A stretch of DNA of 49,615 bases from an uncultured Gammaproteobacteria bacterium. GTDB lineage: Bacteria; Pseudomonadota; Gammaproteobacteria; Xanthomonadales; SZUA-38. The notes beneath the pieces were generated by a model. The model made no database searches. It was given only the letters and a program-made list of their open reading frames with translations, and had not been told where the DNA came from. The DNA is taken from assembly GCA_964630895.1 (NCBI GenBank), contig CAZVYE010000004.1, positions 1 through 49,615 on the forward strand. Direction: 5' to 3'. The position numbers and the translations under genes are program-made. Shown here in pieces: positions 2-19,485 of the stretch (position 1 is the first letter of the stretch; each line of letters begins with the position of its first letter).

Positions 2-1126
2 GATTTCAACGACCCTTTGACCTGGTCGCACAACCGAATTGAAGGCAATCAGTCTTTTACCACGCTGCTTTATCTTCCCGAGACTGCGCCGTTCGACATG
101 ATGATGGGACGTGATGATCGAGAAAGACACGGATTAAAGCTTTATGTGAAGCGTGTTTTTATTATGGATGCGGCAGAGCAATTGCTACCAAACTATCTGC
201 GGTTTGCACGCGGCGTTGTAGATTCGGATGATTTGCCGCTTAACGTCTCGCGCGAAATTCTGCAGGACAACGCACTGGTTTCTAAGATCCGAGCGTCCGT
301 CACTAAGCGATTGCTAGACATGATCGCAAAAGTAGCAAAAGATGATGAAAAGTACGCGGAATTCTGGAAGCAGTTTGGCGCAACCATCAAAGAAGGTCTT
401 GCCGAGGACGCGTCTAATCAAGAGAAATTGTTAGAGCTGGTCCGGTACGCATCCACCCAAAGCGAGGGCGAAGCGCACTCTGTTTCTTTGGCAGATTACG
501 TAGCTCGCATGAAAGGCGAGCAGGACAAGATCTATTACATAACCGCCGACTCCTACAGTGCGGCGAAAAACAGCGCGCACCTTGAGTTGTTTCGGAAGAA
601 GGGTATTGAAGTTCTGCTCATGTCTGACCGAGTCGACGAATGGGTGATGGGCCACTTGCGCGAATTTGAAGGCAAGCCATTTCAATCGGTAGCCAAGGGC
701 GATATCGACCTCTCCAATCTTGAGGACGACGCAGAAAAAGCGGCAAAAACCGAGCAGGAAGAGGCGGCTAAACCGTTGGTAGAGCGTTTGGAGAAAGCTC
801 TAGGTGATCGTGTTGAAGATGTGCGAGTCAGCCATCGCTTGACCGATTCTCCATCGTGTCTGGTGTTGAATCAGCACGATATGGCGGTACATATGCAGAC
901 ACTTCTCAAGCAGGCGGGTCAAGACCAGATGCTGGGTAGCTCTAAGCCTAAGCTGGAAGTGAATCCCCAGCACGAGCTACTTAAGCGTGCGGCGGCGGAG
1001 GAAGACGACGAAAAATTTGCCCAATGGGCAACGTTGCTATTCGAGCAAGCCTGGGTGGCAGAAGGTGGTTTGCTAGAAGACCCAGCCGGTTTCGTTCGCC
1101 GCAGTAATTCGTTGCTGCTGGGATAA
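2..1126 (+). CDS. htpG: Molecular chaperone HtpG (Hsp90 family), C-terminal ~374 aa; the 5' end lies outside the window
   Basis: The frame is open from nt 2 (DFNDPLTWSHNRIEGNQSFTTLLYLP...). The middle and C-terminal HtpG sequence is typical (LKLYVKRVFIMD, LPLNVSREILQ). The stop at 1124-1126 abuts the hslR ATG. Confidence 0.9.
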   Translation, partial: DFNDPLTWSHNRIEGNQSFTTLLYLPETAPFDMMMGRDDRERHGLKLYVKRVFIMDAAEQLLPNYLRFARGVVDSDDLPLNVSREILQDNALVSKIRASVTKRLLDMIAKVAKDDEKYAEFWKQFGATIKEGLAEDASNQEKLLELVRYASTQSEGEAHSVSLADYVARMKGEQDKIYYITADSYSAAKNSAHLELFRKKGIEVLLMSDRVDEWVMGHLREFEGKPFQSVAKGDIDLSNLEDDAEKAAKTEQEEAAKPLVERLEKALGDRVEDVRVSHRLTDSPSCLVLNQHDMAVHMQTLLKQAGQDQMLGSSKPKLEVNPQHELLKRAAAEEDDEKFAQWATLLFEQAWVAEGGLLEDPAGFVRRSNSLLLG

Positions 1127-1650: not shown

Positions 1651-3372
1651 TTACTTGCCGTTTCGGGTGATACCAATCAGACCCAATTGCTCCAGCTTCA
1701 AGATGATACGCTGAACGGACTGATCGGGAGATAGCGAACTGGTATCCAGTTCAATCTCTGCTCGCTCAGGCACTTCGTAGGGGTCGCTAATGCCGGTAAA
1801 CTCTTTAATCTTGCCTTCTCTGGCTAATGCGTACAGACCTTTTCGGTCCCGTTGCTCACATACTTCCAGCGGAGTGGCAACGTGAACCTCAATGAATCCA
1901 CCTACCGGCTCGATCATTTCACGAACTTCTCGACGTGTTTGCTGATATGGCGCGATAGGTGCACAAATAGCTACGCCACCGTTTTTGGTGATTTCGCTTG
2001 CTACAAAACCAATGCGCAACACGTTGATATTGCGGTGTTCTTTAGAAAACCCTAGTTCGCTAGATAGGTTTTTGCGCACAATGTCGCCGTCTAGCAAGGT
2101 GACCGGTCGACCGCCCATTTCCATCAGTCGAACCATCAAAGCGTTAGCAACAGTAGACTTCCCAGCACCAGAGAGTCCGGTAAAGAATACGGTGAACCCT
2201 TGCTTGTCCCGAGGCGGATAACTGCGCCGCAGTTCCTGTACAACTTCTGGGTAGGAAAACCACTCTGGAATATCCAGTCCTTCCCGTAGGCGTCTACGTA
2301 GTTCAGTGCCAGAAATATTCAACGTCGTTTCGTTCTCCCCAACATCGCCAACTGGTACGTATTGAGCGCGGTCTTGAACATAAACCATCATTTGAAACGG
2401 TACCATTTCAACACCAATCTCGTCCTGGTATTCGGAAACGAGCTCCTGGGCGTCGTAAGGTCCGTAAAACGGCTCGCCGTTGCGGTCGTTGCCAGGGCCA
2501 GCATGATCACGCCCCACGATGAAATGGCTGCAACCGTAATTTTTGCGAATAATGGCGTGCCATAGAGCTTCTCTAGGCCCACCCATGCGCATTGCCAGAT
2601 TCAAAAGGCTGAGTTCAGTGGTTGCTTCAGGAAAACGCTCCAGCAGCTTTTCGTAGCAACGGACACGTGTCATGTGGTCTACGTCGCCCGGCTTGGTCAA
2701 TCCCACTACCGGATGAATGAGTAAGTTGGCCTGCGCCATTTGTGCGGCTCTGAAGCTCAGTTCCTGGTGTGCGCGGTGCATGGGATTGCGAGTTTGGAAG
2801 GCAACAATCCGACTCCAACCCATGCGCTCGAATCGCTCCCGCAACCGGGCAGGCGTAACCCGCAAATGTCTGAAATCGTAGTGGGTAGGCATCTGGATGC
2901 CGCGAATCTTACCGCCCACGTAGACAGGGTTGCTCTGGTTGAGCAGGTAATTCACGGCAGGATGCAAATCATCCGTTGTGCCAAATACCTGCTCAGCTTC
3001 GTTGGATTTGTCTGGCTGCCAGATGTCTTCAATGCTCAAAACACCAACGGCAACGCCCTCTGGATCGCGTAGCGTCAGGTTACCGCCAACTTCGAGCTGT
3101 TCGGCAAACTCTTCACTCACGTCAAGGGTTATTGGCATAGGCCAGACTGTGCCGTCGGAAAGACGCATGTCAGAAACGACACTGTCATAATCGGCCTGGT
3201 TGAGAAACCCTTCCAGCGGCGAGAACGAACCGTCTAGGAGCATTTCCATGTCGCATAACTGGCGTGCATTAAGATCCCAGGATGGGTGCTCGTTCGACTC
3301 TGTTTTGAGTGATCCAGCGTCATCGACTATAAGTTGTTTTAGGGCGCCGCCGTGCGGTTGAACCAATGCCAT
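1651..3372 (-). CDS. Bifunctional sulfate adenylyltransferase (ATP sulfurylase) / adenylylsulfate (APS) kinase
   Basis: 573 aa. The N-terminal two thirds are Sat-type ATP sulfurylase (FQTRNPMHRAHQEL, GRDHAGPG). The C-terminal third is APS kinase with P-loop FFTGLSGAGKSTVA. Confidence 0.9.
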   Translation of the reverse strand: MALVQPHGGALKQLIVDDAGSLKTESNEHPSWDLNARQLCDMEMLLDGSFSPLEGFLNQADYDSVVSDMRLSDGTVWPMPITLDVSEEFAEQLEVGGNLTLRDPEGVAVGVLSIEDIWQPDKSNEAEQVFGTTDDLHPAVNYLLNQSNPVYVGGKIRGIQMPTHYDFRHLRVTPARLRERFERMGWSRIVAFQTRNPMHRAHQELSFRAAQMAQANLLIHPVVGLTKPGDVDHMTRVRCYEKLLERFPEATTELSLLNLAMRMGGPREALWHAIIRKNYGCSHFIVGRDHAGPGNDRNGEPFYGPYDAQELVSEYQDEIGVEMVPFQMMVYVQDRAQYVPVGDVGENETTLNISGTELRRRLREGLDIPEWFSYPEVVQELRRSYPPRDKQGFTVFFTGLSGAGKSTVANALMVRLMEMGGRPVTLLDGDIVRKNLSSELGFSKEHRNINVLRIGFVASEITKNGGVAICAPIAPYQQTRREVREMIEPVGGFIEVHVATPLEVCEQRDRKGLYALAREGKIKEFTGISDPYEVPERAEIELDTSSLSPDQSVQRIILKLEQLGLIGITRNGK

Positions 3373-3684
3373 GAAACTTCCTTGATTTATAGGTTGAACG
3401 TTTGAGAATTAAAATGGTCTTGATGAGAGGCGTTTAAACGGTTTATGAATGCGTATTTGAATTCTCGTTAGACAAACCGCATAGTTAGAAAAGCATCACA
3501 TCGTCACAAGGCGCGCAATTCTACCTGTCTCATCCCCAGCTTGAAAGCAGTAGCTTGTTTTTTTGGCCATTGAACTGGCTTCTAGGTCACTGCAGAATAT
3601 GCGCCGGAATGAGACCGAGCAAGGAATTTGCAGCTTGGTGCTTAAACGATTTTTATCTAAGAAACAGACTTGGAGAGCGATTAC

Positions 3685-4377
3685 GTGAAGAAAACGATTT
3701 TGGCAACGCTGGTTGCGGCAGGTTTTGCCGGCCAGGTGGTTGCAGACAATCACGACGAACTCAGCTATATGCTGGGCTACGACATTGGTCAGCGCATTGG
3801 CAGCTTAGGTTTGGACGAAGTCAATAGCGAAGAGTTTATTGCAGGTCTCGAAGCTGCGATGGCTGGAAATGAGTCGCGCTTGACAGACGAGCAGGTGCAG
3901 GCAGCTACTGCGATGATCACCGAACTCCAGCAGGCCGCAATGGAAGCGCAGCGCGCTGAGCTGGCCGCGGCAGCCCAAGCCAATCAGACCGAAGGCGAAG
4001 AGTTCCTGGCGGAAAACGCTAATAAGGACGGTGTGATGGTCACGGATAGTGGCTTACAGTACGAAGTTATCGAAATGGGTGATGGTCCCAAGCCGGCCGC
4101 CACTGATGAAGTAACTGTGCACTATCGCGGTACGACCCTTGACGGTGAAGAATTCGATAGCAGCTTCAAGCGCAACGCGCCGGCTACTTTTGCACTCAAT
4201 CGCGTTATTAAGGGTTGGACTGAGGGTCTGCAATTGATGCCGGCTGGCAGTAAGTTCAAGTTTTATATCCCTGCTGATCTGGCTTACGGTGGCCGTGGAT
4301 CACCACCAAATATTGGACCGAACTCTACCTTGATCTTCGACGTCGAGCTGCTCGAAGTGAAAGGGGCTGAGGGATAA
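3685..4377 (+). CDS. fkpA: Periplasmic FKBP-type peptidyl-prolyl cis-trans isomerase (FkpA/FklB-like)
   Basis: A signal-like N-terminus (VKKTILATLVAAGFAGQVVA) precedes a helical FKBP_N region and an FKBP_C domain (VTVHYRGTTLDGEEFDSS...IKGWTEGLQLMPAGSKFKFYIPADLAYG). I prefer the GTG at 3685, with GGAG 8-10 nt upstream, over the track's TTG at 3670. Confidence 0.85.
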   Translation: MKKTILATLVAAGFAGQVVADNHDELSYMLGYDIGQRIGSLGLDEVNSEEFIAGLEAAMAGNESRLTDEQVQAATAMITELQQAAMEAQRAELAAAAQANQTEGEEFLAENANKDGVMVTDSGLQYEVIEMGDGPKPAATDEVTVHYRGTTLDGEEFDSSFKRNAPATFALNRVIKGWTEGLQLMPAGSKFKFYIPADLAYGGRGSPPNIGPNSTLIFDVELLEVKGAEG

Positions 4378-5054: not shown

Positions 5055-5935
5055 GAATCTCTTTTGCCCAGATTCGCTAGCATGTCAATCTGGTTGTCTA
5101 GATGCTCTAATCCGACTGGATATTGCAGGGCGTAAATTGGAGTTTTCCGCGCTAATCGCGCCATCTTAGAAAAATGATCCTTGGCAATGGGCACGCTAAA
5201 ACCCTTGGCCGCGACCGTATGTTGGATCAGCGTTTGGTGAGCCTCAGTCCATTGCAGTCTGCTTATCGTGGGGGCTCCTCGCGCGGCGTCAGGTTCCAGA
5301 CGTACCACGCAATCGATTTTTTCAGGCTGTGACTCCAGAGGATTTGGCAGCTTGAGCTGCGGGTAAGGTCCAACGATGCCGGGTGAGCCGTCCTCCTGTA
5401 CTTCAACTAAAACGCCGTCGTCCGCAAAGCGCCGACCATCGGTGTGCTCGGAAACTGCGCGGGCCATTGTGGATTTTCCCGATCCGGAGCATCCAGTCAG
5501 TGCGATAGTTACGCCATTAATTCTCACTAGACTGCTGTGCAGAATGTAGTGTTTCTTGGCCGCATGGCAAAGCGCCATTCCCGGCCCCAGCACCAGCCAA
5601 TCCAAAATGGGAGTTGGCTGCTCCGTAAGCTCCCAAATGATGCTGTTCTGATCATCGACAAACAGTTTTACATCACCGGAGCCTATTCGATAGCCAGATT
5701 CAGCCCGTACAATGGCCAACGGAATTTGACCCAGATCGGTTGGAACAATGCCCGAAAATTTCACATCGTTGGCTTCCTGAAAAAAGCAAGTAGGCATTGT
5801 GTCTGGAAGCTCAAATGAGCGGGCGGCGGGTATTGTCTGCAGTGCGGTAATTTGACGATAGCTGGCAAAACCGCTGGACCCCATAGGATAAAGCCAGCGG
5901 GTGCTATTAGATGACTTTGTGCTCAGGTAGATCAT
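5042..5935 (-). CDS. HPr-kinase-like (HprK-related) serine kinase, predicted RiPP tailoring enzyme
   Basis: 297 aa with P-loop LTGCSGSGKSTMARAV in an HprK C-terminal-domain-like context. It lies directly downstream of the precursor gene, as in paeninodin-type lasso clusters. Confidence 0.65.
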   Translation of the reverse strand: MIYLSTKSSNSTRWLYPMGSSGFASYRQITALQTIPAARSFELPDTMPTCFFQEANDVKFSGIVPTDLGQIPLAIVRAESGYRIGSGDVKLFVDDQNSIIWELTEQPTPILDWLVLGPGMALCHAAKKHYILHSSLVRINGVTIALTGCSGSGKSTMARAVSEHTDGRRFADDGVLVEVQEDGSPGIVGPYPQLKLPNPLESQPEKIDCVVRLEPDAARGAPTISRLQWTEAHQTLIQHTVAAKGFSVPIAKDHFSKMARLARKTPIYALQYPVGLEHLDNQIDMLANLGKRDSWAA

Positions 5936-5937
5936 GT

Positions 5938-5952
5938 GGACACACAGTGTCC
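5938..5952 (-). promoter_or_regulatory. Intercistronic hairpin between the precursor stop and the kinase start (possible attenuator or mRNA-stability element)
   Basis: The minus strand reads TAA-TCT-GGACAC-TGT-GTGTCC-AC-ATG. This gives a perfect 6-bp GC-rich stem with a 3-nt loop that fills the 20-nt gap. There is no Shine-Dalgarno for the kinase. Confidence 0.35.
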
Positions 5953-5955
5953 AGA

Positions 5956-6132
5956 TTAAGGGCGCCTGATGGATGGCGCGCCGCTTTCCCCGGTTCCAGG
6001 GCTAGGGCCGAATGTGATATCACGCACATCGCCATGCTCTATCAGTTTGGGCTTTTGATAGGACCTTTTCTCCCCAGCGTTTGTGGAGATTTCAGGCGAT
6101 TGCAAAGCATTTTTGTTGATCTGGTCTTTCAT
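5956..6132 (-). CDS. Lasso peptide precursor (A), 58 aa, absent from the ORF track because it is under 60 aa
   Basis: My own translation of the minus strand gives MKDQINKNALQSPEISTNAGEKRSYQKPKLIEHGDVRDITFGPSPGTGESGAPSIRRP*. AGGAAA lies 5 nt upstream of the ATG, 21 nt after the cyclase stop. The leader carries the lasso motif Y-x-x-P-x-L-x3-G-x5-T-x with Thr at -2. The predicted core GPSPGTGESGAPSIRRP has Gly1 and Glu8 available for the macrolactam. Confidence 0.7.
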   Translation of the reverse strand: MKDQINKNALQSPEISTNAGEKRSYQKPKLIEHGDVRDITFGPSPGTGESGAPSIRRP

Positions 6133-6153
6133 AGTTTCCTGGAGCCGGATTGC

Positions 6154-7923
6154 TCAAGCGAAATCCGGTAAATTTTTTCGCCAAATTTCTAAAGCTAAAC
6201 AATACCAGAGAATCAGCAGCTCTGGGTCCTCTAGATGTGAATTTTTGAACCAAGTTTGCACATTGTTGCGTTTTACGAACTGAGGCCATATTGCGTCTTC
6301 CGACTCTAGTAAATTCGCTACTTGTTGTTGGCCGAGATTAAACAGTCCCAGCCGCAAGTGATCCGTAAAGGCAGTTTTATCAGGTCGCATTATGATGGAT
6401 TCGGGCAGATGCTCGCGTAGGGCTAAGCGCATCAAGTATTTGCTTGGTGGCAGTACGTCTTGTGTGTCACCATTTAATAGGTAAGCTGGTACATTTGCCA
6501 TGAACTGAACCATTTCCAAATCTCGTAATGGAAATCGATTTGCCAGTTGCCAAGGTGCAGATTCCTGTTCTGCCGTAACTGCGCAATGTGCCAACCATGC
6601 ATTGATCATGCTCTCAGCGCGATAGCGGCCGGCGTCGACTCCGACCATCTCGTGTTGCATACCGATCGCGGGCAAAGGCTCCAAGTATTCGCGCATCCAC
6701 TCTGGGTAGGGTTGCACCGCAGTTCGGCGCAGGCCGAGGCCGGGGAGTAATTTTCTCAGGCTCGGGTCCGCTAGCCAGGCGCGCGGTGAACACCACCTTA
6801 CCCCTGTGATGCCCTGGAAAAGTGCGCGCCACTTTCGATCTCGCATGAGATCGCTTAAATCATAGGAGTGATGGCAATACAACAAATCCCCAAAATCTCC
6901 CGTCAATAGAACCTGTGTGTCACGGGATTTCAATTGATCGTATATTGCGTGACGATAGCTGCGGTAGGCATCAAGAGCTGCCTCACCTTTGGCCAGATGG
7001 TTAAGCCAGTTTGAGTTTTGAAACGGTGCAAGCTGGTCACAGTCGACGAAATCAATAGGCAGGCCCAGTTCGTTTGCCAGTTCCTGGGCATAACTACTTT
7101 CATCCAGTTTTGGCCAATTTTTAAATCGGTAGCTGACCAGGGAAAGTGCCAGATCCTTACGTTCCAAACATAACTGTCGCGCAGCCCATGCAACAGCAGG
7201 CGAGTCCATGCCGCCACTCACGGCCACACTGACCCGCTTAGCGTTACCGATACAGCGTTTTGTGCTTCGCAGCAATTGACGTCTTAATTGGTCTGCCCAT
7301 TGAGATTCGGGCAGGGTCTCTTGTTTTGCATACCGCCAGGGCATGTTCCAGTAGCGGTGATGTGAAACACCCTCATGACTGAAAGTCGTAACACTTCCCG
7401 GCCTCACCTGCTTAATCTGAGAGAAGTATGTCTGATCTGGTTTTGGGTCGCGCAATGCAAACAGACGCTTTAATCGGTCCTGGTCGAGGGCTGACGAGAT
7501 GTCCTTGATTGCTAATAACCCGTCCTCGCGGGGTGCAAACCAAACAATCTCAGTTTCACCATCTTGCCGGATGCTCCAACACACCGTGCGATTGCCAATC
7601 GGGTCTCTGCGTATTCTGATTCGATTCTCTTGCGGTAGAAACTCAAACTCAATGCAGGCGCTCCAGTCACAAGGTTTCTCGAGAGCCTCATGCTGGGTCC
7701 ACGTAAGCGTAAAGCCTGAGTTTGTCGATTGAACCTCCGGCGACGGATATTCTGTTCGGTCGGTGCCGGCCAAGCAAAAAAGTCGGTGGTCGACTTGGTG
7801 TTCGTCTACTTTCGCCAGGCCGCCTGGCAGGAGAGCTGCGAGTGCGCGCCGTGCTTGGCTGCGGGTGTCTTGAGGAAGTTTGTCGCCGGCACGGAGCCAG
7901 GCGATCACAAATGCATTATTCAA
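6154..7923 (-). CDS. Lasso peptide cyclase C (asparagine synthetase B homolog lacking the N-terminal Cys nucleophile)
   Basis: 589 aa. It has PP-loop VSVAVSGGMDSPAVAW, and its N-terminus (TTG-encoded Met, then NNAFVIAW) has no Cys2. The TTG start overlaps the upstream stop (TTGA). Confidence 0.75.
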   Translation of the reverse strand: MNNAFVIAWLRAGDKLPQDTRSQARRALAALLPGGLAKVDEHQVDHRLFCLAGTDRTEYPSPEVQSTNSGFTLTWTQHEALEKPCDWSACIEFEFLPQENRIRIRRDPIGNRTVCWSIRQDGETEIVWFAPREDGLLAIKDISSALDQDRLKRLFALRDPKPDQTYFSQIKQVRPGSVTTFSHEGVSHHRYWNMPWRYAKQETLPESQWADQLRRQLLRSTKRCIGNAKRVSVAVSGGMDSPAVAWAARQLCLERKDLALSLVSYRFKNWPKLDESSYAQELANELGLPIDFVDCDQLAPFQNSNWLNHLAKGEAALDAYRSYRHAIYDQLKSRDTQVLLTGDFGDLLYCHHSYDLSDLMRDRKWRALFQGITGVRWCSPRAWLADPSLRKLLPGLGLRRTAVQPYPEWMREYLEPLPAIGMQHEMVGVDAGRYRAESMINAWLAHCAVTAEQESAPWQLANRFPLRDLEMVQFMANVPAYLLNGDTQDVLPPSKYLMRLALREHLPESIIMRPDKTAFTDHLRLGLFNLGQQQVANLLESEDAIWPQFVKRNNVQTWFKNSHLEDPELLILWYCLALEIWRKNLPDFA

Positions 7924-9106: not shown

Positions 9107-10810
9107 ATGTTATTGAGAGTTTTGGCAGGAGCATTTTGGCTCATCGCAGCAACGTCGGTTGTATCCCAGGCTGGCACAGCTGATAGCGTGGCAGCTAACT
9201 ACGAAAGCCAGCGTGTCACGGCTGGTCAAGCTGCTCGTGCAATGGTAGCTGACGGGTTCTCTGCGGCCATAGCGGTCCCTGCGGTGGTTCGAGCCTATCA
9301 GGACTGTGGTGCGACGGTAGATGCGATTCGGTCGACAGCAAAGTCTCATCCGGATCAAATGACTGCGGTGGTACAGGCAGTTTCCCGAATGGATAATTGT
9401 TTCTGTGGTGCGTCGGCAATGCGAACGGCTATCTGGACGAATCAGCCGCCCACCGGTCTGGCATCACAAAGGATCGAATTGCCGATGAACTGTGCATGCG
9501 CTGCAATCGCTGTCGAGGCGAGCAGTACGGCCGTGCCAATTGCGGTGAACGCAGTGGATTCGGCGATTGCCATGCTGCAACCGGCAGGACAATCGGTCGA
9601 TGCAGTGGTGTTGGGCCAGGACGGCAGCTTGTCAGCGGGACGCGAAGCACAGCGTTGCGAAGCTTCTTCCGCCGAAGCGTGGTCCGTGGGCACTCCAGCG
9701 ACACCCGGGTCTCATTCCGCTCAATGTAACGGATCCGAACTCCTGTTTTCAGAAGCAAGATTAGACGCCAAAGGCGAGGGCTATTTGGAAGTTTACAATC
9801 CATCGAGCGCGGACAAGAAGGATTTGCTGCGTGACCGATACGTGCTGGAAGTGACCATGCCCAATGCTGAGAGCCCAGCACGTCGCGTGGAACTGACAGG
9901 CGTCATTGAACCGGGTACGGCTGCCTTGATTAAAGTTGGCAACAACATGTCCAGTGCAGTTGAGCCGGTAGTAACTTCTGGTGCGCTACCGCCCATCGCA
10001 GGTGGCCAGGTGCGATTGCTTCGCGATGTTGGGCCGGATGAATGCGCCTGTTCAGAGTCGCTGGCTGGTGCAGTGTTACGGGGACTGTTGGAAGAGCAAA
10101 TAGAGAATGAAGTAGACGCAGACGCAGGAGAACTGGTCGAAGCATGGAATGCTCAGAGTTCTCGAACCATTGTTACCGGAATAGACGCGGCAAAAATTAA
10201 TCGTCGCTCGGAAACTGGTCAAACGCTATCAACGCGGGTCTTGCAGCGCGCGCAGGATGATTGTGGCAACCAACCACTTGCGATGTTTATGCGATTTGAC
10301 GATGACCGACTCAACCTGAAGGATCACGAAACCAATTGCCCGGACGAAGGTCAGGGGCGAGTTTTCATTTCGGAGGTTGCCTGGCGAGAAGATGGCCGCA
10401 TGGCTGTGGAGTTATTCAATCCGGGCGCTGAGGCAATTGATTTGGCCGCAGCGGGCATCATGATGGCCACTAGCGACGTGGAGATGAATGACAATGAAGA
10501 TGTCTCTGATCCCATTGCATTATTTGGCACAGTTGGTCCACGTGAGACTTTTGTTGTAGCCGATCAGGCTTTTGGAGCCAACCCAGCTAGCGTGGATGCT
10601 ACGCTGGATAATTTAAGTGTCGGTGGCCAGCCATCGGTCGCTTTGCGCCTTTATTCCGAGCAAAGTCCGCAGCGCTGTACATCGCCGGTGGCTGCTTTGT
10701 TTGCGACAGACCCCAGTAACTCCGTTTCTTTTGTTCCACTGCCAGAACCCCCAGGGCAAGATGATGATCCTGGCGGCACTCCTGTAGATGATGCCGTTAG
10801 TCCCAATTAA
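9107..10810 (+). CDS. Secreted Cys-rich protein with two lamin-tail-domain (LTD)-like modules
   Basis: It has a signal peptide (MLLRVLAGAFWLIAATSVVSQA). Two LTD-like cores are present: LLFSEARLDAKGEGYLEVYNPSS...DL and VFISEVAWREDGRMAVELFNPGAEAIDL. The tail is acidic and Pro-rich. AAGGAA lies upstream of the ATG. Confidence 0.5.
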   Translation: MLLRVLAGAFWLIAATSVVSQAGTADSVAANYESQRVTAGQAARAMVADGFSAAIAVPAVVRAYQDCGATVDAIRSTAKSHPDQMTAVVQAVSRMDNCFCGASAMRTAIWTNQPPTGLASQRIELPMNCACAAIAVEASSTAVPIAVNAVDSAIAMLQPAGQSVDAVVLGQDGSLSAGREAQRCEASSAEAWSVGTPATPGSHSAQCNGSELLFSEARLDAKGEGYLEVYNPSSADKKDLLRDRYVLEVTMPNAESPARRVELTGVIEPGTAALIKVGNNMSSAVEPVVTSGALPPIAGGQVRLLRDVGPDECACSESLAGAVLRGLLEEQIENEVDADAGELVEAWNAQSSRTIVTGIDAAKINRRSETGQTLSTRVLQRAQDDCGNQPLAMFMRFDDDRLNLKDHETNCPDEGQGRVFISEVAWREDGRMAVELFNPGAEAIDLAAAGIMMATSDVEMNDNEDVSDPIALFGTVGPRETFVVADQAFGANPASVDATLDNLSVGGQPSVALRLYSEQSPQRCTSPVAALFATDPSNSVSFVPLPEPPGQDDDPGGTPVDDAVSPN

Positions 10811-13246: not shown

Positions 13247-14989
13247 ATGTGTGGCATCGGTGGAGAATACGGATACCATTTTGCTGCGTCCAAGCCTGAT
13301 CAAGAGACACTTTGCCGACTGAGAGATGCAATGCAAGCCAGGGGACCAGATGCAGCCGGCTATTGGGAAGAGCCCAAATCCAAAATCTCTCTGGTCCACA
13401 GACGGCTAACAATTATAGATGTTGACGACCGTAGTAATCAGCCCATGGTTTCAACCTGTGGGCGGTATTCAATTTCATACAACGGCGAAATCTATAATTA
13501 TCGCGCATTGCGCAAAGCGCTTGAGCGAGATGGTGTACGTTTCCGCACTGAATCGGACACTGAAGTTGTATTGGCAATGTTTGCGCAGCATGGCACCAAG
13601 ATGTTCCAGCTATTGCGTGGTATGTATTCCCTTGCGATTTGGGACACGCAGACAAAACAGTTGCTACTTGCACGCGACCCATACGGCATCAAACCGCTGT
13701 ATTATTTCGACAGCGGATGGAGCATAACTTTTGCATCTTCCGCTAAAGCACTTGCGACACATTTGGGAATCTCAAACATTGAACCAGCGGGAGCGTGTGG
13801 GTTCTACATGCTGGGCAGCGTGCCGGAACCGTGGACGATCTACTCTGGAATTTTTTCCGTTCCTGCAGGCAGTTACATTCGTATAGATGCAACCGGTCTA
13901 CAGTCTCGGCAGTATTTTTTCCCCAGCACACTGTATTCAAGAGACCAATCATTCTCACTGAAGGATTTTAGATCGCACTTACACGAGTCGGTCGCAGCGC
14001 ATATGACGGCTGATGTCGAAGTAGGCGTATTTCTCTCTGCAGGTTTGGATTCAAGCATCATTGCCTTACTTGCTTCCCAAGTAACAGACAAACGCTTAAG
14101 CACTATTACGCTTGGATTTGAAGAATACTCAGCCACGTATGACGATGAGTTTCCAAATGCGAGCCGAACCGCGGAATTGTTAGCGTCAAATCACTGCGAG
14201 AGACTGGTTAGCAAGAGAGAGTTTTTGGAAGACCTGCCTCAAATTCAGGCTCATATGGACCAACCGACAATTGATGGTATTAACACATGGTTTGTATCCA
14301 AAGCCTGTGCAGAGCAGGGAATTAAAACTGCATTATCCGGTCTTGGCGGGGATGAATTTGGCGAAGGGTATCCTGCGTTTGACAACGTGAGTCGAGCGAG
14401 ACGACTAGCGAGATGGGTGCCGGGCAAGAGGCCATTGGGCCGACTGGTTCGCGCTCTACTGAAGCGAGTTGGAACGGGACTTCACCCAAAACGGTCTGCT
14501 GCGCTGGAATACGCTGATTCGGTCGCGCGACTGTGGTTTTTGCAGCGTGCGATATTCTTGCCGCACGAACTCAAAGAACTCATGCCGGCGACTACGTTCG
14601 AAGAAGGAATGTTTAAGCTCGAAATGCAATCCCACCTGAGTGTCAGGGGTGGAAGTGACGATATGCGCATTGCGGATCAAGTCGGTTGCTTAGAGTCTTC
14701 AATGTATATGAGTAATCAACTGCTGCGGGATTCGGACTGGGCATCGATGGCTCATTCAGTTGAAGTGCGTGTCCCATTTGTTGACTTACCGTTGCTCGAG
14801 CGTTGGTTGAGTGCAGGCAATCCGGTCGTTAAACAGGAATGGTTAGATGCATTTCCCGAGCTAAAACCAATCCTGGAGAATCGTGCAAAAACCGGGTTCA
14901 CAACACCACTCCAAACATGGAGATCACTGCCTGCGCCTTGGGCAAGAGCCTGGGCCCAGGAGGTACTGCCATTCGATACCTTGCACTGA
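13247..14989 (+). CDS. Asparagine synthetase B-type glutamine amidotransferase (EPS-associated)
   Basis: MCGIGG at the N-terminus supplies the Cys2 Ntn nucleophile. PP-loop VGVFLSAGLDSS is present. 580 aa. Confidence 0.85.
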   Translation: MCGIGGEYGYHFAASKPDQETLCRLRDAMQARGPDAAGYWEEPKSKISLVHRRLTIIDVDDRSNQPMVSTCGRYSISYNGEIYNYRALRKALERDGVRFRTESDTEVVLAMFAQHGTKMFQLLRGMYSLAIWDTQTKQLLLARDPYGIKPLYYFDSGWSITFASSAKALATHLGISNIEPAGACGFYMLGSVPEPWTIYSGIFSVPAGSYIRIDATGLQSRQYFFPSTLYSRDQSFSLKDFRSHLHESVAAHMTADVEVGVFLSAGLDSSIIALLASQVTDKRLSTITLGFEEYSATYDDEFPNASRTAELLASNHCERLVSKREFLEDLPQIQAHMDQPTIDGINTWFVSKACAEQGIKTALSGLGGDEFGEGYPAFDNVSRARRLARWVPGKRPLGRLVRALLKRVGTGLHPKRSAALEYADSVARLWFLQRAIFLPHELKELMPATTFEEGMFKLEMQSHLSVRGGSDDMRIADQVGCLESSMYMSNQLLRDSDWASMAHSVEVRVPFVDLPLLERWLSAGNPVVKQEWLDAFPELKPILENRAKTGFTTPLQTWRSLPAPWARAWAQEVLPFDTLH

Positions 14990-16056
14990 TGACCGAAGCA
15001 TTTGCGGCGCACGGCGGTATCCAGCAGTTTAACCGAGACTTTTTAACCGCGCTCGACAATAGCGGCCATAGTGGTGTGGTAATTGTTCGCAACGCGGCAA
15101 ACCAGACTGTTCAGGTTTTTAGCGACACGAAACAGATCAGAATGCGCAGCAAATTGGCGTATTCAATTCGATCAATCGCTGTGACCTACCAGTATAAGCC
15201 TGACATTCTTTTCTGTGGCCATATCAATTTGATGCCGATTGCGAAGTTGCTGGGTCGCATATTCAATATTCCTATTTGGTTTCATGGACACGGCATTGAA
15301 ATTTGGGAATTGACGAAAATACAAAGGAAGTCATTGGGTTCAGCGAAGCTCCTAACTGCAGTATCTCGCTACTCAATGCAGCAACTCCGATCCCAGATGC
15401 CCAGCGCGTATCGATACCAGTTCGCGGTACTTCCAAACACCGTCAGGGCGGAGTTTCGACCAAGTACAAAGACACAATCGTGCCACCGCGGCCAAACAAG
15501 CATCCGTTTGCTTATCGTTGGTCGACTCAACAGCATGGAGCGCTACAAAGGTCACGACTGGCTGATCAACAACCTGGGATCATTAAGAGATCGGGTGGGA
15601 GATGTTCAATTGACCATCGTAGGCGATGGCGATGACAAGCAACGGTTGCAGTTTTTAACCAAGCAGCTCGGACTTTCGGATTGGGTCAACTTCATGGGTC
15701 AAGTAGATGAACAGCAGCTTCAAGAAGCGCTATTTGCGAGCGACTTGTTCGTAATGCCGAGCACCGGGGAGGGGTTTGGGATTGTTTATCTGGAAGCGAT
15801 GTCTGCAGGATTGCCCGCTATTGGCCTGGTAGACAAAGGAAGCCGTGATCCGCTGGAAGCCGAGCCTATGGGGGCGGCGTACGATCAGTCAGAACTCTTT
15901 GACAAACTGGTCGAAAGAATCCAGGCAATTCGAAATGGAAATGTAACTACCCAGCAGGGTGTTCAAGTATTTACCCGTGCCAACTTTGATGCGTTCGTAG
16001 GGGCTTTGGCCTCGCGTTTCTCCCCAGAACAGCCGGATGAGCAATGCATAAACTGA
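14989..16056 (+). CDS. Glycosyltransferase family 4 (GT-B)
   Basis: FVMPSTGEGFGIVYLEAMSAGLPAIG is the E-x7-E region. I take the start at ATG 14989, which overlaps the upstream TGA (TGATGA). The track's 14839 start would overlap asnB by 150 nt. Confidence 0.75.
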   Translation: MTEAFAAHGGIQQFNRDFLTALDNSGHSGVVIVRNAANQTVQVFSDTKQIRMRSKLAYSIRSIAVTYQYKPDILFCGHINLMPIAKLLGRIFNIPIWFHGHGIEIWELTKIQRKSLGSAKLLTAVSRYSMQQLRSQMPSAYRYQFAVLPNTVRAEFRPSTKTQSCHRGQTSIRLLIVGRLNSMERYKGHDWLINNLGSLRDRVGDVQLTIVGDGDDKQRLQFLTKQLGLSDWVNFMGQVDEQQLQEALFASDLFVMPSTGEGFGIVYLEAMSAGLPAIGLVDKGSRDPLEAEPMGAAYDQSELFDKLVERIQAIRNGNVTTQQGVQVFTRANFDAFVGALASRFSPEQPDEQCIN

Positions 16057-17738
16057 TCCTTGATTTATTGGGGCCAGCCAAAAGGCATCTACCTCTTATC
16101 GCGCTATTGATGTTGTTCTCTGGTGTGTTGGACTTGATAGGCGTGGGCTTGGTTGTGCCACTAATTCTGGCATTTTTCGATTCTACATCGGACAGATTCT
16201 CGTATTTAAGTGCAGTATCCGAGGAGGCGTTGTTGGCAGGCTTAGTGGCCGTCTTTGCTTTAAAAACATGCGCCAGCTTTCTTCTGCAGGGTCGTATAAC
16301 GCATTTCGCCCAAACCAGTCGCTTCGACCTGATGGCAAGGCTTCTTAGGGTCTACCTGCGCCAGCCGTTGTTGTTTCACATTGAAAACCATTCTAGCGAA
16401 CTCATGAATAGAGCGATTTTCTTTACCGACAGATTTGCGGGCCTGGTATTGGTTTGTGGCGCGAGACTGCTAGCTGATGGCATCGTATTTCTGGGTTTAG
16501 TTTGTGTGCTGTTATTTATTGACCCCAAAGTCACGATAGTTCTGGGCGGTATATTGGGGATTGCGTACTTGGTACTGCATATGTTCGTGAAACGCCCACT
16601 CAGAAACCTGACTGATGTCATGGCAAATTCTCAGCAGCACTTGATCAAGGCAACGCAAGATAGTCTGGGCGCAATCGAGGAGTTGAAGGTGCTGGGACAC
16701 GAGGAGGCGTTTGTTCGAACTATCGAGAAACGAGGCAGCGTCATAAGGGACGCAAATAGCCGTTACAGTGCCTTTCAGACTTTACCTCGCAACGCAGTGG
16801 AAACCATTGTGCTTGCATTTTTGGCGGCAATTGCAATCTATTTTACGCGTCAAAACACTGATCCGGCGCAGATTCTCGCCATGCTCAGCGCCTTTGCCAT
16901 GGCCGGCATCCGGCTAATACCTGCGTCAACCTCGATTATGACCAACAGTCAGCAACTTTTCGCCAATCTCGGTGTGATAAGCATATTGCATGAGAATCTT
17001 GCTCTGCCGATACCTGAATCTACGTCGCAAGATACGCGCGACGAAGCTATTGAATCTGTGGAATTGCGTCATATTTCGTTCTCTTATCCGGGTAGCAATG
17101 TGCAGGCGGTAGCTTGCAGCGAGCTGGACCTGGAATCGGGGCATGTCTATGCCATATCTGGAGAGTCAGGGGCGGGAAAAACCACCTTGGCCGGCATTTT
17201 GCTGGGGCTCATTCAGGCGGACAATGGCATGATCTTGATAAACGGAGCGGAGACTCAAAGTAGTTGGCAACAACTGTGTGCGTATATTCCCCAGAAGCCA
17301 TTTCTCTTAGACGGGTCAATTATTGAGAATGTCACCTTGGGCGAAGATGTGTCAGCGATAGACACGGACCGTATATGGCAGGCTCTGGACAAGGTGCAGC
17401 TACTGGATGTGGTTGAACAGCTGCCAGAAAAATTGCATAGCAAGGTTGGGGAAGGTGGCGGACGGCTAAGTGGTGGACAAAGACAAAGGCTAGCGTTAGC
17501 TCGGGCTTTTTACTTTCAACGTCACCTGATCGTGTTAGACGAGTCAACATCGGCTCTGGATGCGAAGACCGAGGCTAAGGTCTTGCAAGCCGTGCGTGCG
17601 CTTGCGGACGGGGCCATCGTACTTGTGATTAGTCATTCAGACATGGTGCGATCAATTGCGGATTACGAAATTCAGGTTAGCGATGGTTTGGTAAGAGCCG
17701 CCAAGAAACTAGAAAATGTCGGGCTTCTTTCTAACTAA
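16044..17738 (+). CDS. MsbA/PglK-like ABC exporter (fused TMD-NBD half transporter)
   Basis: The N-terminal half has about 6 TM segments. It carries Walker A GESGAGKTT, signature LSGGQRQRLALARA and Walker B LIVLDESTSALD. Confidence 0.85.
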   Translation: MHKLILDLLGPAKRHLPLIALLMLFSGVLDLIGVGLVVPLILAFFDSTSDRFSYLSAVSEEALLAGLVAVFALKTCASFLLQGRITHFAQTSRFDLMARLLRVYLRQPLLFHIENHSSELMNRAIFFTDRFAGLVLVCGARLLADGIVFLGLVCVLLFIDPKVTIVLGGILGIAYLVLHMFVKRPLRNLTDVMANSQQHLIKATQDSLGAIEELKVLGHEEAFVRTIEKRGSVIRDANSRYSAFQTLPRNAVETIVLAFLAAIAIYFTRQNTDPAQILAMLSAFAMAGIRLIPASTSIMTNSQQLFANLGVISILHENLALPIPESTSQDTRDEAIESVELRHISFSYPGSNVQAVACSELDLESGHVYAISGESGAGKTTLAGILLGLIQADNGMILINGAETQSSWQQLCAYIPQKPFLLDGSIIENVTLGEDVSAIDTDRIWQALDKVQLLDVVEQLPEKLHSKVGEGGGRLSGGQRQRLALARAFYFQRHLIVLDESTSALDAKTEAKVLQAVRALADGAIVLVISHSDMVRSIADYEIQVSDGLVRAAKKLENVGLLSN

Positions 17739-19485
17739 GAGCCCCATTTGCCAGGATGACTTAGAAATTGTCCAACGCGCGTTGGTGGTGCGCGAGGGTA
17801 ATCGAGCCAAGGTAATACAGCACGGAAACTGGTGTTTGGTGACATCGATCCACTCAGAACACCCTTTTCAGGAACCGCACGTTGAGCAGACCGAAAGCAC
17901 CCTCGGATTTGTCTGGGGTAGCTTGTTTACTGGTTCTCGCCGCTTAGAAAGTGCAGATATTGCGCGGCAGCCAATGTCTGACGATTGCAATTGGGAAGGC
18001 GCTGGTTTTGCCCTGCGGCTTACGGAGCAAGGAGCTGCACAGTTTCGAACTGATGCCATGGGTTTTGTTCCCATATTTAGGAGCGGGGACTCAATCAGCA
18101 GTGATCCCGACTTATTGGGTCTGTTTAATCGAGGAAATGTATCGACCTTGGCAATCGCACAAACAGTGTTCTTTTCGCGAACGCCTATGCCAAAAACATA
18201 TTGGGAGCATGTTCACGTGCTTCCGCCGGCGAACCTGTTTGAGTGGGAGCAGGGCAAGTTGCGATCAAACTGCTACTGGGAGCCAAACGCCAGCGTCACC
18301 AGCAACAAGCACCAGTTGATCGAGCAAACGGTAGAAGGCGTGCGTTCGGCAGTGCGAAGACGAGAGTCGGCAGCCAATGGAAACGTAACGCTTCTCTTGT
18401 CGGCTGGTCTCGATTCGCGCGCGATTCTATACAGCTTGGCTAATCCTGCTGCTGCTCGTTGCCTAACGCTTGCAGACACCGAGAACGAAGAGGTGAGGTT
18501 ATCCAGAGAAATCGCCAATTCTGCTGGCGCAAAGCATGTGGTTATGTTCAGAGACGTAGAACACTATCCTCGCGAATCGGCAGGTCAAGTTCAATCGTTC
18601 TATGGGATGTGGAATTTTGCGGACTTACATACCGCAGGATTAGGTCAGAAAATACTCGAAGATAGCCCTGGCATCGTAATGACCGGCTGTTATGCAGATT
18701 ATCTTTTTAAGGGAATAGAAGTTGATCGTAGATCACGGACTGTAATGGGGAGATTTGTTCCGTGGTACGCAGTTCGGAGTACCAGCGCTCAGGGTTACTG
18801 TCCACATGCCTTTACCGATGCACCCAAGTTCCAAATGGTCTTTGAAAGGTCGTTTCATGATGTGCAGCAGCAATTTGGCAGCGTTGACGAACTGAGCCTC
18901 AAGCAGAATGAGATACGCAGAATATGGCCAATCTTTATGGAGCCCAATTTGGCGTTTCGCACGGGTCTGAGACGGTACTTGCCATGGGAGCCCGTGTTCG
19001 CTGATACCGCGCTGCTTGATGTTTGGGATCATACGCCTCGACGCTGGGCAATAAACGGCGAAATCTGGAGCAAGGCAGTTGCCAAGATGTCCCCGGTTGG
19101 CTGCCGCATTAAGAATAATAACTGGTCTGGCCGGGTAGGTGCTTCTGCGCCGGAGAATGCTGTCAGACATGTGGCAGGCTCGATATTCAGGAAGTTTCAA
19201 AAGTTAAAACAAGAGATGCTTCCCGCGCACGCCACCATCGGCTCCTGGCCAAACTATGCCGTAGTTCTAGAGCAATCGAGTCGCTTCCATCAAGACTGGA
19301 ATGCCATAAGTGCGGCAACGAAAGAGTTAGTTGCCGAAGCAACAGGGCAAGACTATTGGTCGCAGGATCTCAGCCATTGGATTCGCCGCGATGCGCTTGC
19401 CTTGATGCGGGTTTTTACAATCGCGCGTTGGCATGATGGTATCGAACAAAGACGCCGGGAATGGCGTGGGAAAGTGGCAGCCTGA
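17716..19485 (+). CDS. Asparagine-synthetase-like adenylating protein without the glutaminase nucleophile
   Basis: PP-loop VTLLLSAGLDSRAILY is present. The N-terminus MSGFFLTK has Ser rather than Cys at position 2. It overlaps the ABC gene by 23 nt. 589 aa. Confidence 0.65.
   Translation: MSGFFLTKSPICQDDLEIVQRALVVREGNRAKVIQHGNWCLVTSIHSEHPFQEPHVEQTESTLGFVWGSLFTGSRRLESADIARQPMSDDCNWEGAGFALRLTEQGAAQFRTDAMGFVPIFRSGDSISSDPDLLGLFNRGNVSTLAIAQTVFFSRTPMPKTYWEHVHVLPPANLFEWEQGKLRSNCYWEPNASVTSNKHQLIEQTVEGVRSAVRRRESAANGNVTLLLSAGLDSRAILYSLANPAAARCLTLADTENEEVRLSREIANSAGAKHVVMFRDVEHYPRESAGQVQSFYGMWNFADLHTAGLGQKILEDSPGIVMTGCYADYLFKGIEVDRRSRTVMGRFVPWYAVRSTSAQGYCPHAFTDAPKFQMVFERSFHDVQQQFGSVDELSLKQNEIRRIWPIFMEPNLAFRTGLRRYLPWEPVFADTALLDVWDHTPRRWAINGEIWSKAVAKMSPVGCRIKNNNWSGRVGASAPENAVRHVAGSIFRKFQKLKQEMLPAHATIGSWPNYAVVLEQSSRFHQDWNAISAATKELVAEATGQDYWSQDLSHWIRRDALALMRVFTIARWHDGIEQRRREWRGKVAA

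Follow-up and report, generated by a model that had tools for sequence, protein, structure and literature searches.

Lasso clusters that pair an HprK-homologous kinase with split B1 and B2 proteins are known from paeninodin (pade, Paenibacillus dendritiformis) and from the polyphosphorylated lasso peptides of ThcoK and SyanK (Zhu et al. 2016; reviewed in PMC8498205 and PMC9266682). Kinases of this type carry a His-Lys-Asp-Asp motif, act on the linear precursor before leader removal and phosphorylate a C-terminal Ser on its side chain (PMC8498205, PMC9266682), a residue called “the extremely conserved site” of these precursors (PMC9266682). In the pseudomycoidin cluster (psm, Bacillus pseudomycoides), whose genes are listed as C, A, K, split B genes and N, the N protein adds one or two hexoses to the phosphate (PMC6993621). 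The characterised system closest to the one studied here is bsf of Bradymonas sediminis FA350 (BsfA, BsfK, BsfN, BsfB1, BsfB2, BsfC, BsfD), whose kinase BsfK phosphorylates core Ser3 of the linear precursor, accepts Thr3, needs or is accelerated by B1, and is the only characterised lasso kinase with a substrate that lacks a C-terminal Ser (PMC10368454). Here we examine an open reading frame (ORF) of 58 codons in a 49,615-nt stretch of DNA from an uncultured gammaproteobacterium (GenBank assembly GCA_964630895.1, contig CAZVYE010000004.1; the whole stretch is referred to below as the window). We conclude that this ORF is very probably the A gene, encoding a class II lasso peptide precursor, of the minus-strand operon in which it lies and which would make that peptide. 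The six genes of the operon, the biosynthetic ones all intact, overlap or abut in the order nucleotidyltransferase-family protein (N), cyclase (C), precursor (A), kinase (K), leader peptidase (B2) and leader-binding protein (B1) (Table 1).

Set beside these systems, the window operon comes nearest to bsf. Both are proteobacterial lasso clusters with an HprK-like kinase of intact catalytic motif, a nucleotidyltransferase gene, split B1 and B2, a leader with YxxPxL at −17 to −12 and a C-terminus other than Ser, and the two cores (GTSGNEVDGSTP... in BsfA, GPSPGTGESGAP... in the window) have in common Gly1, Ser3, an acidic position 8 for an 8-membered ring, small residues at 9 and 10 and Pro12, with no other similarity. 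The BsfA core (GTSGNEVDGSTPADRGNNPGD) runs to 21 residues, its precursor ends in Asp, the ring is closed by Asp8, leader position −2 is Ile and a D transporter is encoded, whereas the window core has 17 residues, would close its ring through Glu8, is preceded by Thr at −2 where the bsf type has Ile or Val, and comes from an operon with no D gene. Paeninodin and the ThcoK and SyanK peptides resemble the window in their HprK-homologous kinase and split B proteins but are phosphorylated on a C-terminal Ser where the window core has Pro. The psm gene set is likewise similar, but it is from Firmicutes, modifies a C-terminal Ser, includes a D transporter and places N after B2 instead of before C. 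Microcin J25, a class II peptide with an 8-membered Gly1-Glu8 macrolactam, no disulfides and a leader Thr at −2, shares these traits with the predicted window product, but it relies on a fused B protein and export by McjD, has no kinase or N tailoring genes and has a dissimilar core sequence. By this comparison the window peptide is not a paeninodin-type substrate, and it resembles the bsf type in its K and N genes, Ser3 and predicted 8-membered ring.

By every sequence-level criterion examined, the ORF is a predicted lasso precursor. Its product, MKDQINKNALQSPEISTNAGEKRSYQKPKLIEHGDVRDITFGPSPGTGESGAPSIRRP, is encoded in the 218-nt gap that separates the end of the cyclase gene (stop at 6154) from the kinase gene (start at 5935), with 21 nt before its ATG and 20 nt after its stop codon. 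It matches the NCBIfam model NF033521 (lasso RiPP family leader peptide-containing protein, where RiPP stands for ribosomally synthesised and post-translationally modified peptide) at 24.3 bits against a cutoff of 19, and since NCBI's annotation pipeline names proteins by NCBIfam models, that name could be expected for it; the lasso_cyano and rhodolasso models match the leader only, with scores under their cutoffs. Within the leader, Y25, P28 and L30 stand exactly 17, 14 and 12 residues ahead of Gly42, and T40-F41 is followed by the small residue G42 at core position 1, an arrangement also present in two related loci that were found independently of any motif (below). When all six frames of the window are translated, the strict motif Y..P.L...G.....T.G turns up a single time, and 200 shuffles did not produce it at all. 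The ORF adjoins genes for a cyclase (PF00733), a PqqD-type RiPP recognition element (PF05402) and a transglutaminase-like peptidase (PF13471), the content that marks a lasso cluster, and Glu8 supplies the Asp or Glu required at core position 7, 8 or 9 of a class II precursor.

A first-pass annotation, made from the window's sequence alone, had already read the ORF as a lasso precursor, and the leader-model match, the cluster content and the conserved same-frame ORF support that reading. Its translation is exact, its figure of 218 nt for the cyclase-kinase gap is correct, and the leader pattern it described (Y25-x-x-P28-x-L30-x3-G34-x5-T40-F41) is present and runs directly into G42. It had placed AGGAAA 5 nt before the ATG, which is true of the AGG part but not of the hexamer, whose end lies nearer to the start codon. 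The label “unannotated” suits the track available to that reader but not the protein collection, where the exact 58-aa product stands as a called gene of this contig.

Independent support for the ORF comes from related loci reached through the cyclase rather than the peptide. We sought cyclase relatives among 5.8 billion proteins, the closest of which are only 30%, 30% and 25% identical, and fetched the contigs of the best three (L003, L004 and L005). L003, from a metagenome-assembled genome (MAG) of the Lysobacterales, has the same order as the window: an N fragment, C, a 55-aa ORF, K, B2, B1, an FKBP gene on the opposite strand, and Sat. In L005 a 56-aa ORF follows the cyclase, and in L004 the contig ends about 400 nt after the cyclase, with no candidate ORF visible in that stretch. 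The leader of the L003 ORF closes with ...KKPYRKPELIHRGDVRDITM (ending GDVRDITM) before a core GPTPGVGESGNPSIRRP, and that of the L005 ORF with ...KKTYRRPRLTLWGDLRDVTL (ending GDLRDVTL) before a core GPSPGVGESGNPGMFKP; these cores agree with the window core at 14 and 11 of 17 positions, and both loci were found via cyclase homology, independently of assumptions about the peptide. The first-pass annotation had staked its claim on conservation of the small ORF in syntenic clusters, and related loci do have a same-frame ORF between their cyclase and kinase genes. With the 58-aa peptide as query, a word-indexed protein search returned nothing beyond that peptide; its relatives exist but lie out of reach of such a search. 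Between the window and L003, identity is 75% for Sat, 59% for FKBP, 65% for the precursor, 38% for both B2 and B1, 32% for the kinase and 30% for the cyclase; the window enzymes are at most 34% identical to any other family member, so the window represents a deep branch of the family.

Codon-level comparison leads to the same conclusion. In the 34-codon stretch that begins at Y-17 and closes at P17, nucleotide identity between the window and L003 is only 62%, with 21 synonymous and 8 non-synonymous codon differences. Among five loci with one and the same core (GPTPGVGESGNPGTLRP), 5-14 of the 51 nt vary from locus to locus, in each case synonymously. Because synonymous change dominates across loci, the precursor frame must be translated and constrained: the ORF is genuine, and selection acts on its amino-acid sequence.

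We then back-translated the leader-core junction D-x-T-x-G-P-[S/T-like]-P-G-x-G-E-[S-like]-G to a degenerate DNA pattern and scanned one genome per species. All 16 loci recovered encode precursors of the same type and all are from MAGs (Lysobacterales, 6; other Gammaproteobacteria/Pseudomonadota, 6; Thermoanaerobaculia, 2; also Ardenticatenaceae, a deltaproteobacterium and ‘Ca. Multivoradales’). A relaxed pattern with positions 3 and 9 free gave six matches on metagenome contigs, five of them precursors and the sixth an obvious chance match. Together the two scans added 21 precursor loci from Gammaproteobacteria, Deltaproteobacteria, Acidobacteriota, Chloroflexota and others. Among 21 non-redundant family precursors, the leader columns that the pattern left free are occupied by Y-17, P-14 and G-8 in every sequence, by L-12 and R-5 in 20 and by D-7 in 19; T-2, in a column fully or partly set by the pattern, is invariant. 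Sixteen of the 21 cores have exactly 17 residues, and none of these sixteen has an acidic residue other than Glu8. F, L, Y or R occupies position 15, R or K is present at position 16 in 20/21, and the C-terminal residue is Pro in 15, Val in 2, Leu in 2, Ile in 1 and Thr in 1, with no Ser. Position 3 is Ser or Thr and position 9 is Ser throughout (21/21 each), including eight sequences in which the search left those columns unconstrained. A literature search for the core strings, and for lasso peptides tied to C25 peptidases or to Lysobacterales, returned nothing relevant, so the family, which so far appears confined to uncultured organisms, also appears to be uncharacterised.

From these comparisons a specific product can be predicted. 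The core, GPSPGTGESGAPSIRRP, contains four Gly and four Pro (8/17) and ends ...RRP; Glu8 is its only acidic residue, and the ring can only be Gly1-Glu8. The candidate modification sites are Ser3 and Ser9, and the candidate plugs are Arg15 and Arg16. The first-pass annotation had placed a 17-residue core of this composition at nt 6009-5959, which retranslation bears out, and had proposed cleavage after Phe41 with Thr at −2 and a Gly1-Glu8 ring, which the conserved leader columns, the sole Glu8 and the synonymous differences between loci with identical cores all support. Its hand-calculated masses (about 1603.81 and 1683.77 Da) agree with our recomputed monoisotopic values of 1603.8066 Da for the dehydrated core, equal to the residue sum, and 1683.7730 Da with one phosphate. 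As plugs it had named Ile14, Arg15 and Arg16; the two arginines fall on the conserved bulky positions 15 and 16, while Ile14 does not.

In characterised systems B1 binds the leader via Y-17, P-14 and L-12 (PMC10368454), B2 cleaves after position −1 with Thr-2 as recognition element, and C activates the acidic side chain (Asp or Glu) and links it to the newly freed N-terminus to form the ring (PMC10368454, PMC8498205, PMC9266682). By the same steps the window B1 would bind the leader through Y-17, P-14 and L-12, B2 would cut after Phe41 with Thr at −2, and the cyclase would adenylate the Glu8 side chain and join it to the Gly1 amine in an 8-membered ring. The 9-residue tail would be threaded through this ring and held by Arg15/Arg16; with the plug there, the loop would span some six residues and the tail would be very short. 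The predicted product has a mass of 1603.807 Da. Before leader removal the kinase would phosphorylate a ring hydroxyl of the linear precursor, most likely that of Ser3 by analogy with BsfK, adding 79.966 Da. More speculatively, export, if it occurs, would depend on a transporter encoded elsewhere.

The likeness to paeninodin that the first-pass annotation had drawn fails as a guide to this tailoring step. Paeninodin-type kinases phosphorylate a C-terminal Ser (PMC8498205, PMC9266682), whereas the window core ends in Pro and a C-terminal Ser is absent from all 21 family members; the paeninodin rule therefore cannot hold for this kinase. The His-Lys-Asp-Asp motif (as defined in PMC9266682) is nonetheless present in the window kinase as H133, K154, D172 and D173; H133, G151, G153, K154, S155, D172 and D173 are invariant among 39 homologues, and BsfK aligns in register with the window kinase at the catalytic His, GxxGxGKS loop and Asp-Asp pair. 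An exhaustive HMMER search of 1.84 billion representative proteins with the kinase found 1784 homologues, none more than 39% identical, and a word-indexed search gave two weak matches only. Identity to BsfK (translated from PMC10368454) is 25% over 175 residues (pairwise E 2e-5). By analogy with BsfK we give phosphorylation at Ser3 roughly an even chance; Ser9 is a distinctly less probable site, and another site, or none, is improbable to the same degree. The alternation of Ser and Thr at family position 3 is what would be expected for a hydroxyl acceptor and matches the Ser/Thr tolerance of BsfK. In pseudomycoidin PsmN adds hexose to the phosphate (PMC6993621), and the window N protein may, speculatively, extend a phosphate with a hexose or a nucleotide.

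Several observations weigh against this picture. The product, its threading, the −18 Da ring and the phosphorylation are all predictions from sequence, and attempts in five hosts to obtain a mature lasso peptide from the related bsf cluster all failed (PMC10368454). No ABC exporter is found among the operon genes (N, C, A, K, B2, B1). The search pattern set, in whole or in part, core columns 1, 2, 3, 4, 5, 7, 8, 9 and 10 and leader columns −4 and −2, and with nine of 17 core columns set in this way, some of the ring invariance among the 21 sequences is a product of the search itself; support free of this bias comes from L003, L005 and the window, and for positions 3 and 9 also from the five metagenome precursors. 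The kinase is at most 39% identical to any of the 1.8 billion representatives and 25% to BsfK, a divergence that leaves its substrate and site to inference; Ser9 is as conserved as position 3; and members with no kinase nearby (L005, L013, L015) keep Ser/Thr3 and Ser9, so the conservation of these residues need not reflect phosphorylation. A ring with Pro2 and Pro4 followed by a 9-residue tail is also unusual, and the product could be an unthreaded branched cycle. That a true precursor is cyclised into such a branched-cyclic product, at least when the K and N modifications are missing, seems to us unlikely: the short tail, the Pro/Gly-rich ring and the restriction of bulky residues to Ile14, Arg15 and Arg16 speak for it, but positions 15 (F/L/Y/R) and 16 (R/K in 20/21) form a conserved bulky pair near the C-terminus, as plugs would, and lasso peptides of only 15 residues with 8-membered rings are known.

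The three observations on kinase divergence, Ser9 (Ser in 21/21, eight of them with the column free) and loci with no kinase in view also favour another alternative, in which the predictions for precursor and ring hold but Ser3 is not what the kinase/N pair modifies: its site might be Ser9, next to the isopeptide bond, or nothing in the peptide, and the HprK-like protein could be a scaffold or have another substrate. We regard this as a possibility to be taken seriously though not the probable case, since the catalytic residues of the kinase are all intact, its gene directly follows the precursor in 9/9 gammaproteobacterial loci that show both and is present in most loci of other phyla, and BsfK targets position 3 and tolerates Ser or Thr there (PMC10368454), in line with the alternation seen in the family. 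That the ORF is instead a chance open frame in a spacer, with another small ORF or none as the substrate, is extremely improbable. Other short ORFs do overlap the gap in other frames (5907-6035 on the minus strand, 5911-6171 on the plus strand, 6092-6289 on the minus strand), and the word-indexed search found only the peptide itself, but the single motif in the window against 0/200 shuffles, the above-cutoff match to a lasso-leader model and the same frame kept in related loci with mostly synonymous change all oppose it. The nucleotide identity of these loci to the window, 52-63%, excludes that they are all artefacts assembled from one sequence, and the family precursors, their column conservation and the codon evidence together already refute the chance-frame account.

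Table 1. Coordinates of the precursor gene, its parts and its neighbours in the window
Feature	Coordinates	Strand	Remarks
Bifunctional ATP sulfurylase/adenosine 5'-phosphosulfate (APS) kinase (Sat)	1651-3372	(-)	Synthesis of 3'-phosphoadenosine 5'-phosphosulfate (PAPS); adjoins cluster beyond FKBP
FKBP-type peptidyl-prolyl isomerase with FKBP_N domain	3670-4377	(+)	Convergent, tail-to-tail with lasso operon beyond B1
B1, PqqD-type RiPP recognition element, 88 aa	4385..4651	(-)	PF05402, 6.6e-7
B2, leader peptidase, transglutaminase-like, 138 aa	4638..5054	(-)	PF13471, 8.7e-10; NF033537 lasso_biosyn_B2 34.5 bits, cutoff 33
K, HprK-like peptide kinase, 297 aa	5042..5935	(-)	P-loop; weak Hpr_kinase_C and HprK_rel_A matches; precomputed PF27840/ScmC domain
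Hairpin, 7-bp stem and 3-nt loop	5937..5953	(-)	Between precursor stop and kinase start, 1 nt before kinase ATG
A, precursor gene	5956..6132	(-)	58 codons + TAA, ATG start; NF033521 match; same-frame ORF kept in related loci
Core peptide, 17 aa	5959..6009	(-)	Glu8 only acidic residue; predicted Gly1-Glu8 ring
Leader peptide, residues 1-41	6010..6132	(-)	Motif Y25(-17), P28(-14), L30(-12), G34(-8), T40(-2), F41(-1)
Shine-Dalgarno-like AGGAAA	6135..6140	(-)	Read from sequence; ends 2 nt before precursor ATG
C, lasso cyclase, 589 aa	6154..7923	(-)	Asparagine-synthase homologue without glutaminase domain; PF00733, 1.3e-22
N, nucleotidyltransferase-family protein, 351 aa	7920..8975	(-)	First operon gene; PF14907 NTP_transf_5, 1.7e-29
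567-aa protein	9107-10810	(+)	Divergent from N; weak, below-cutoff lamin-tail-domain match

Among the operon proteins, the cyclase has as its best NCBIfam match NF033535 (lasso isopeptide-forming cyclase, 2.4e-39), under the family-specific cutoff, and B1 matches NF033530 (lasso PqqD chaperone, 9.4e-11), also under cutoff. The G+C content of the cluster (0.48-0.53) equals that of its flanks. N lies upstream of C in the same position in 9 related loci (L003/L016, L004, L007, L008, L010, L011, L012, L018), several of them cut by the contig end, and all gammaproteobacterial loci of sufficient length show N-C-A-K-B2-B1 followed by a convergent FKBP gene, two of them also with Sat, as in the window. 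The hairpin after the precursor stop (−9.1 kcal/mol, z = −2.5 against shuffles, with 3/200 shuffles equally good) may stabilise the transcript or attenuate read-through; the relatives, with 66-71% G+C, fold strongly in any case. No Shine-Dalgarno sequence is evident at the kinase start, whose codon may be mis-set, or kinase translation may be coupled or attenuated.

Around the operon, the FKBP gene stands tail-to-tail with it in 8 related gammaproteobacterial loci as well (55-60% identical), beside a window core in which 4 of 17 residues are Pro; the adjacency could be plain lineage synteny or a functional link. Sat is syntenic in L003 and L017 (75% identical). Sulfotransferase genes occur in some Firmicutes lasso clusters (reviews; PMC8498205), and none was seen in the window operon. 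A homologue of the 567-aa protein occupies the same position in L012, an Oceanospirillales MAG. In the window, some 30 kb beyond this protein is taken up by a polysaccharide locus with numerous glycosyltransferase genes as well as Wzy, Wza, Wzc and lipopolysaccharide-core genes. A true glutamine-dependent AsnB homologue lies at 13247-14989, and the polysaccharide operon includes, at 16044-19485 on the plus strand, an ABC exporter of 564 aa (fused permease and ATPase) followed by a 589-aa Asn-synthase-like protein that has no glutaminase domain. We considered the ABC transporter (16044-17738) as the missing D exporter but found no support for this: it lies 8 kb off, on the other strand and in a glycosyltransferase operon, and no equivalent full-length ABC gene was found near the related clusters. 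The Asn-synthase-like protein (17716-19485) was rejected as a second lasso cyclase of this system, being 23% identical over 270 residues and inside the polysaccharide operon.

Some members of the wider set depart from the common plan. In the gammaproteobacterial locus L015 (2780-3013, minus strand) the same ring, GPTPGLGESG, is followed by a 21-residue tail with four Cys (CECVFRAGGAGATCPVDCNTL), possibly a variant with disulfide bridges. Apart from the cyclase and precursor genes, this locus shows only unrelated neighbours (phosphofructokinase, TetR, amidohydrolase). Outside the Gammaproteobacteria, a very large Peptidase_C25 (gingipain-like) protein directly adjoins the cyclase-precursor-kinase unit in L006 (6502-7998, minus strand), L009 (4097-7999, minus), L021 (3260-7438, plus) and L027 (2-5692, plus), with E values of 1e-61 to 1e-69. 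No B1 or B2 genes were detected at these four loci, and in three of their four precursors the core runs past position 17. The C25 peptidase might do the work of B2, might shorten the tail by cutting behind the conserved R/K16, or might itself be a target of the peptide; a cyanobacterial C-A-K cluster without B genes has been noted (PMC6993621). Two further ORFs show other combinations of leader and core. On the 1.4-kb contig L001, a 60-aa ORF (350-532, plus strand) immediately precedes another HprK-like kinase. Its leader is a perfect lasso leader, AYESPKLTVYGKVSELTQ followed by G, but its Arg/Gly-rich core, GGPGRRARRHRARGNGRRRGRGRGHGGSRS, offers no Asp or Glu for ring closure and has Ser as its last residue; either the sequencing or the frame is at fault here, or the kinase has a substrate other than a lasso peptide. 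In L002 a 58-aa ORF (2946-3122, plus strand) lies between cyclase and kinase in a C-A-K-B2 order, with a different core (...SPSPKDSGEPRKVPGNDGP) that ends in Pro and a leader that lacks Thr at −2.

A reading we put forward only tentatively, and consider doubtful as it stands, is that of an old lasso family in which the ring GP(S/T)PGxGESG has stayed near-fixed while the maturation enzymes drifted to 25-30% identity, pointing to a conserved role and not to a fast-evolving antibiotic. On this reading the cluster appears to descend vertically within one gammaproteobacterial lineage, where the same FKBP gene is its neighbour every time, and at least four more groups of phylum rank, none of them cultured, have the family as well. 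A broader claim, that the core as a whole is more conserved than the enzymes, did not hold: the 8 free core columns have a median pairwise identity of 37.5%, against 30% for the cyclases, and the contrast applies to the ring and to the two independently found loci, not to the tail. The fixed ring across phyla, the putative ring-side tailoring and the apparent lack of an exporter rest on partly ascertained data and on no chemistry. Were the reading of an old fixed-ring family true, it would suggest a conserved cellular or ecological role, for example in signalling, enzyme regulation or physiology linked to the envelope or exopolysaccharide, together with a phospho-(glycosyl or nucleotidyl) modification borne by the ring at Ser3, and in some phyla a gingipain-like C25 peptidase might stand in for the B proteins.

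The locus represents a known kind of biology rather than a new one, and it is a sound genome-mining target with a precise predicted product, given by its sequence, cleavage site, ring and masses. Among lasso kinases that act on a ring residue, only BsfK has been studied, and no one has obtained the mature peptide of its cluster; another family that is widely distributed and has the same K and N genes would offer another route to this chemistry and could reveal the function of the N protein. The conservation of the ring across phyla, unusual for lasso peptides, hints at a conserved target.

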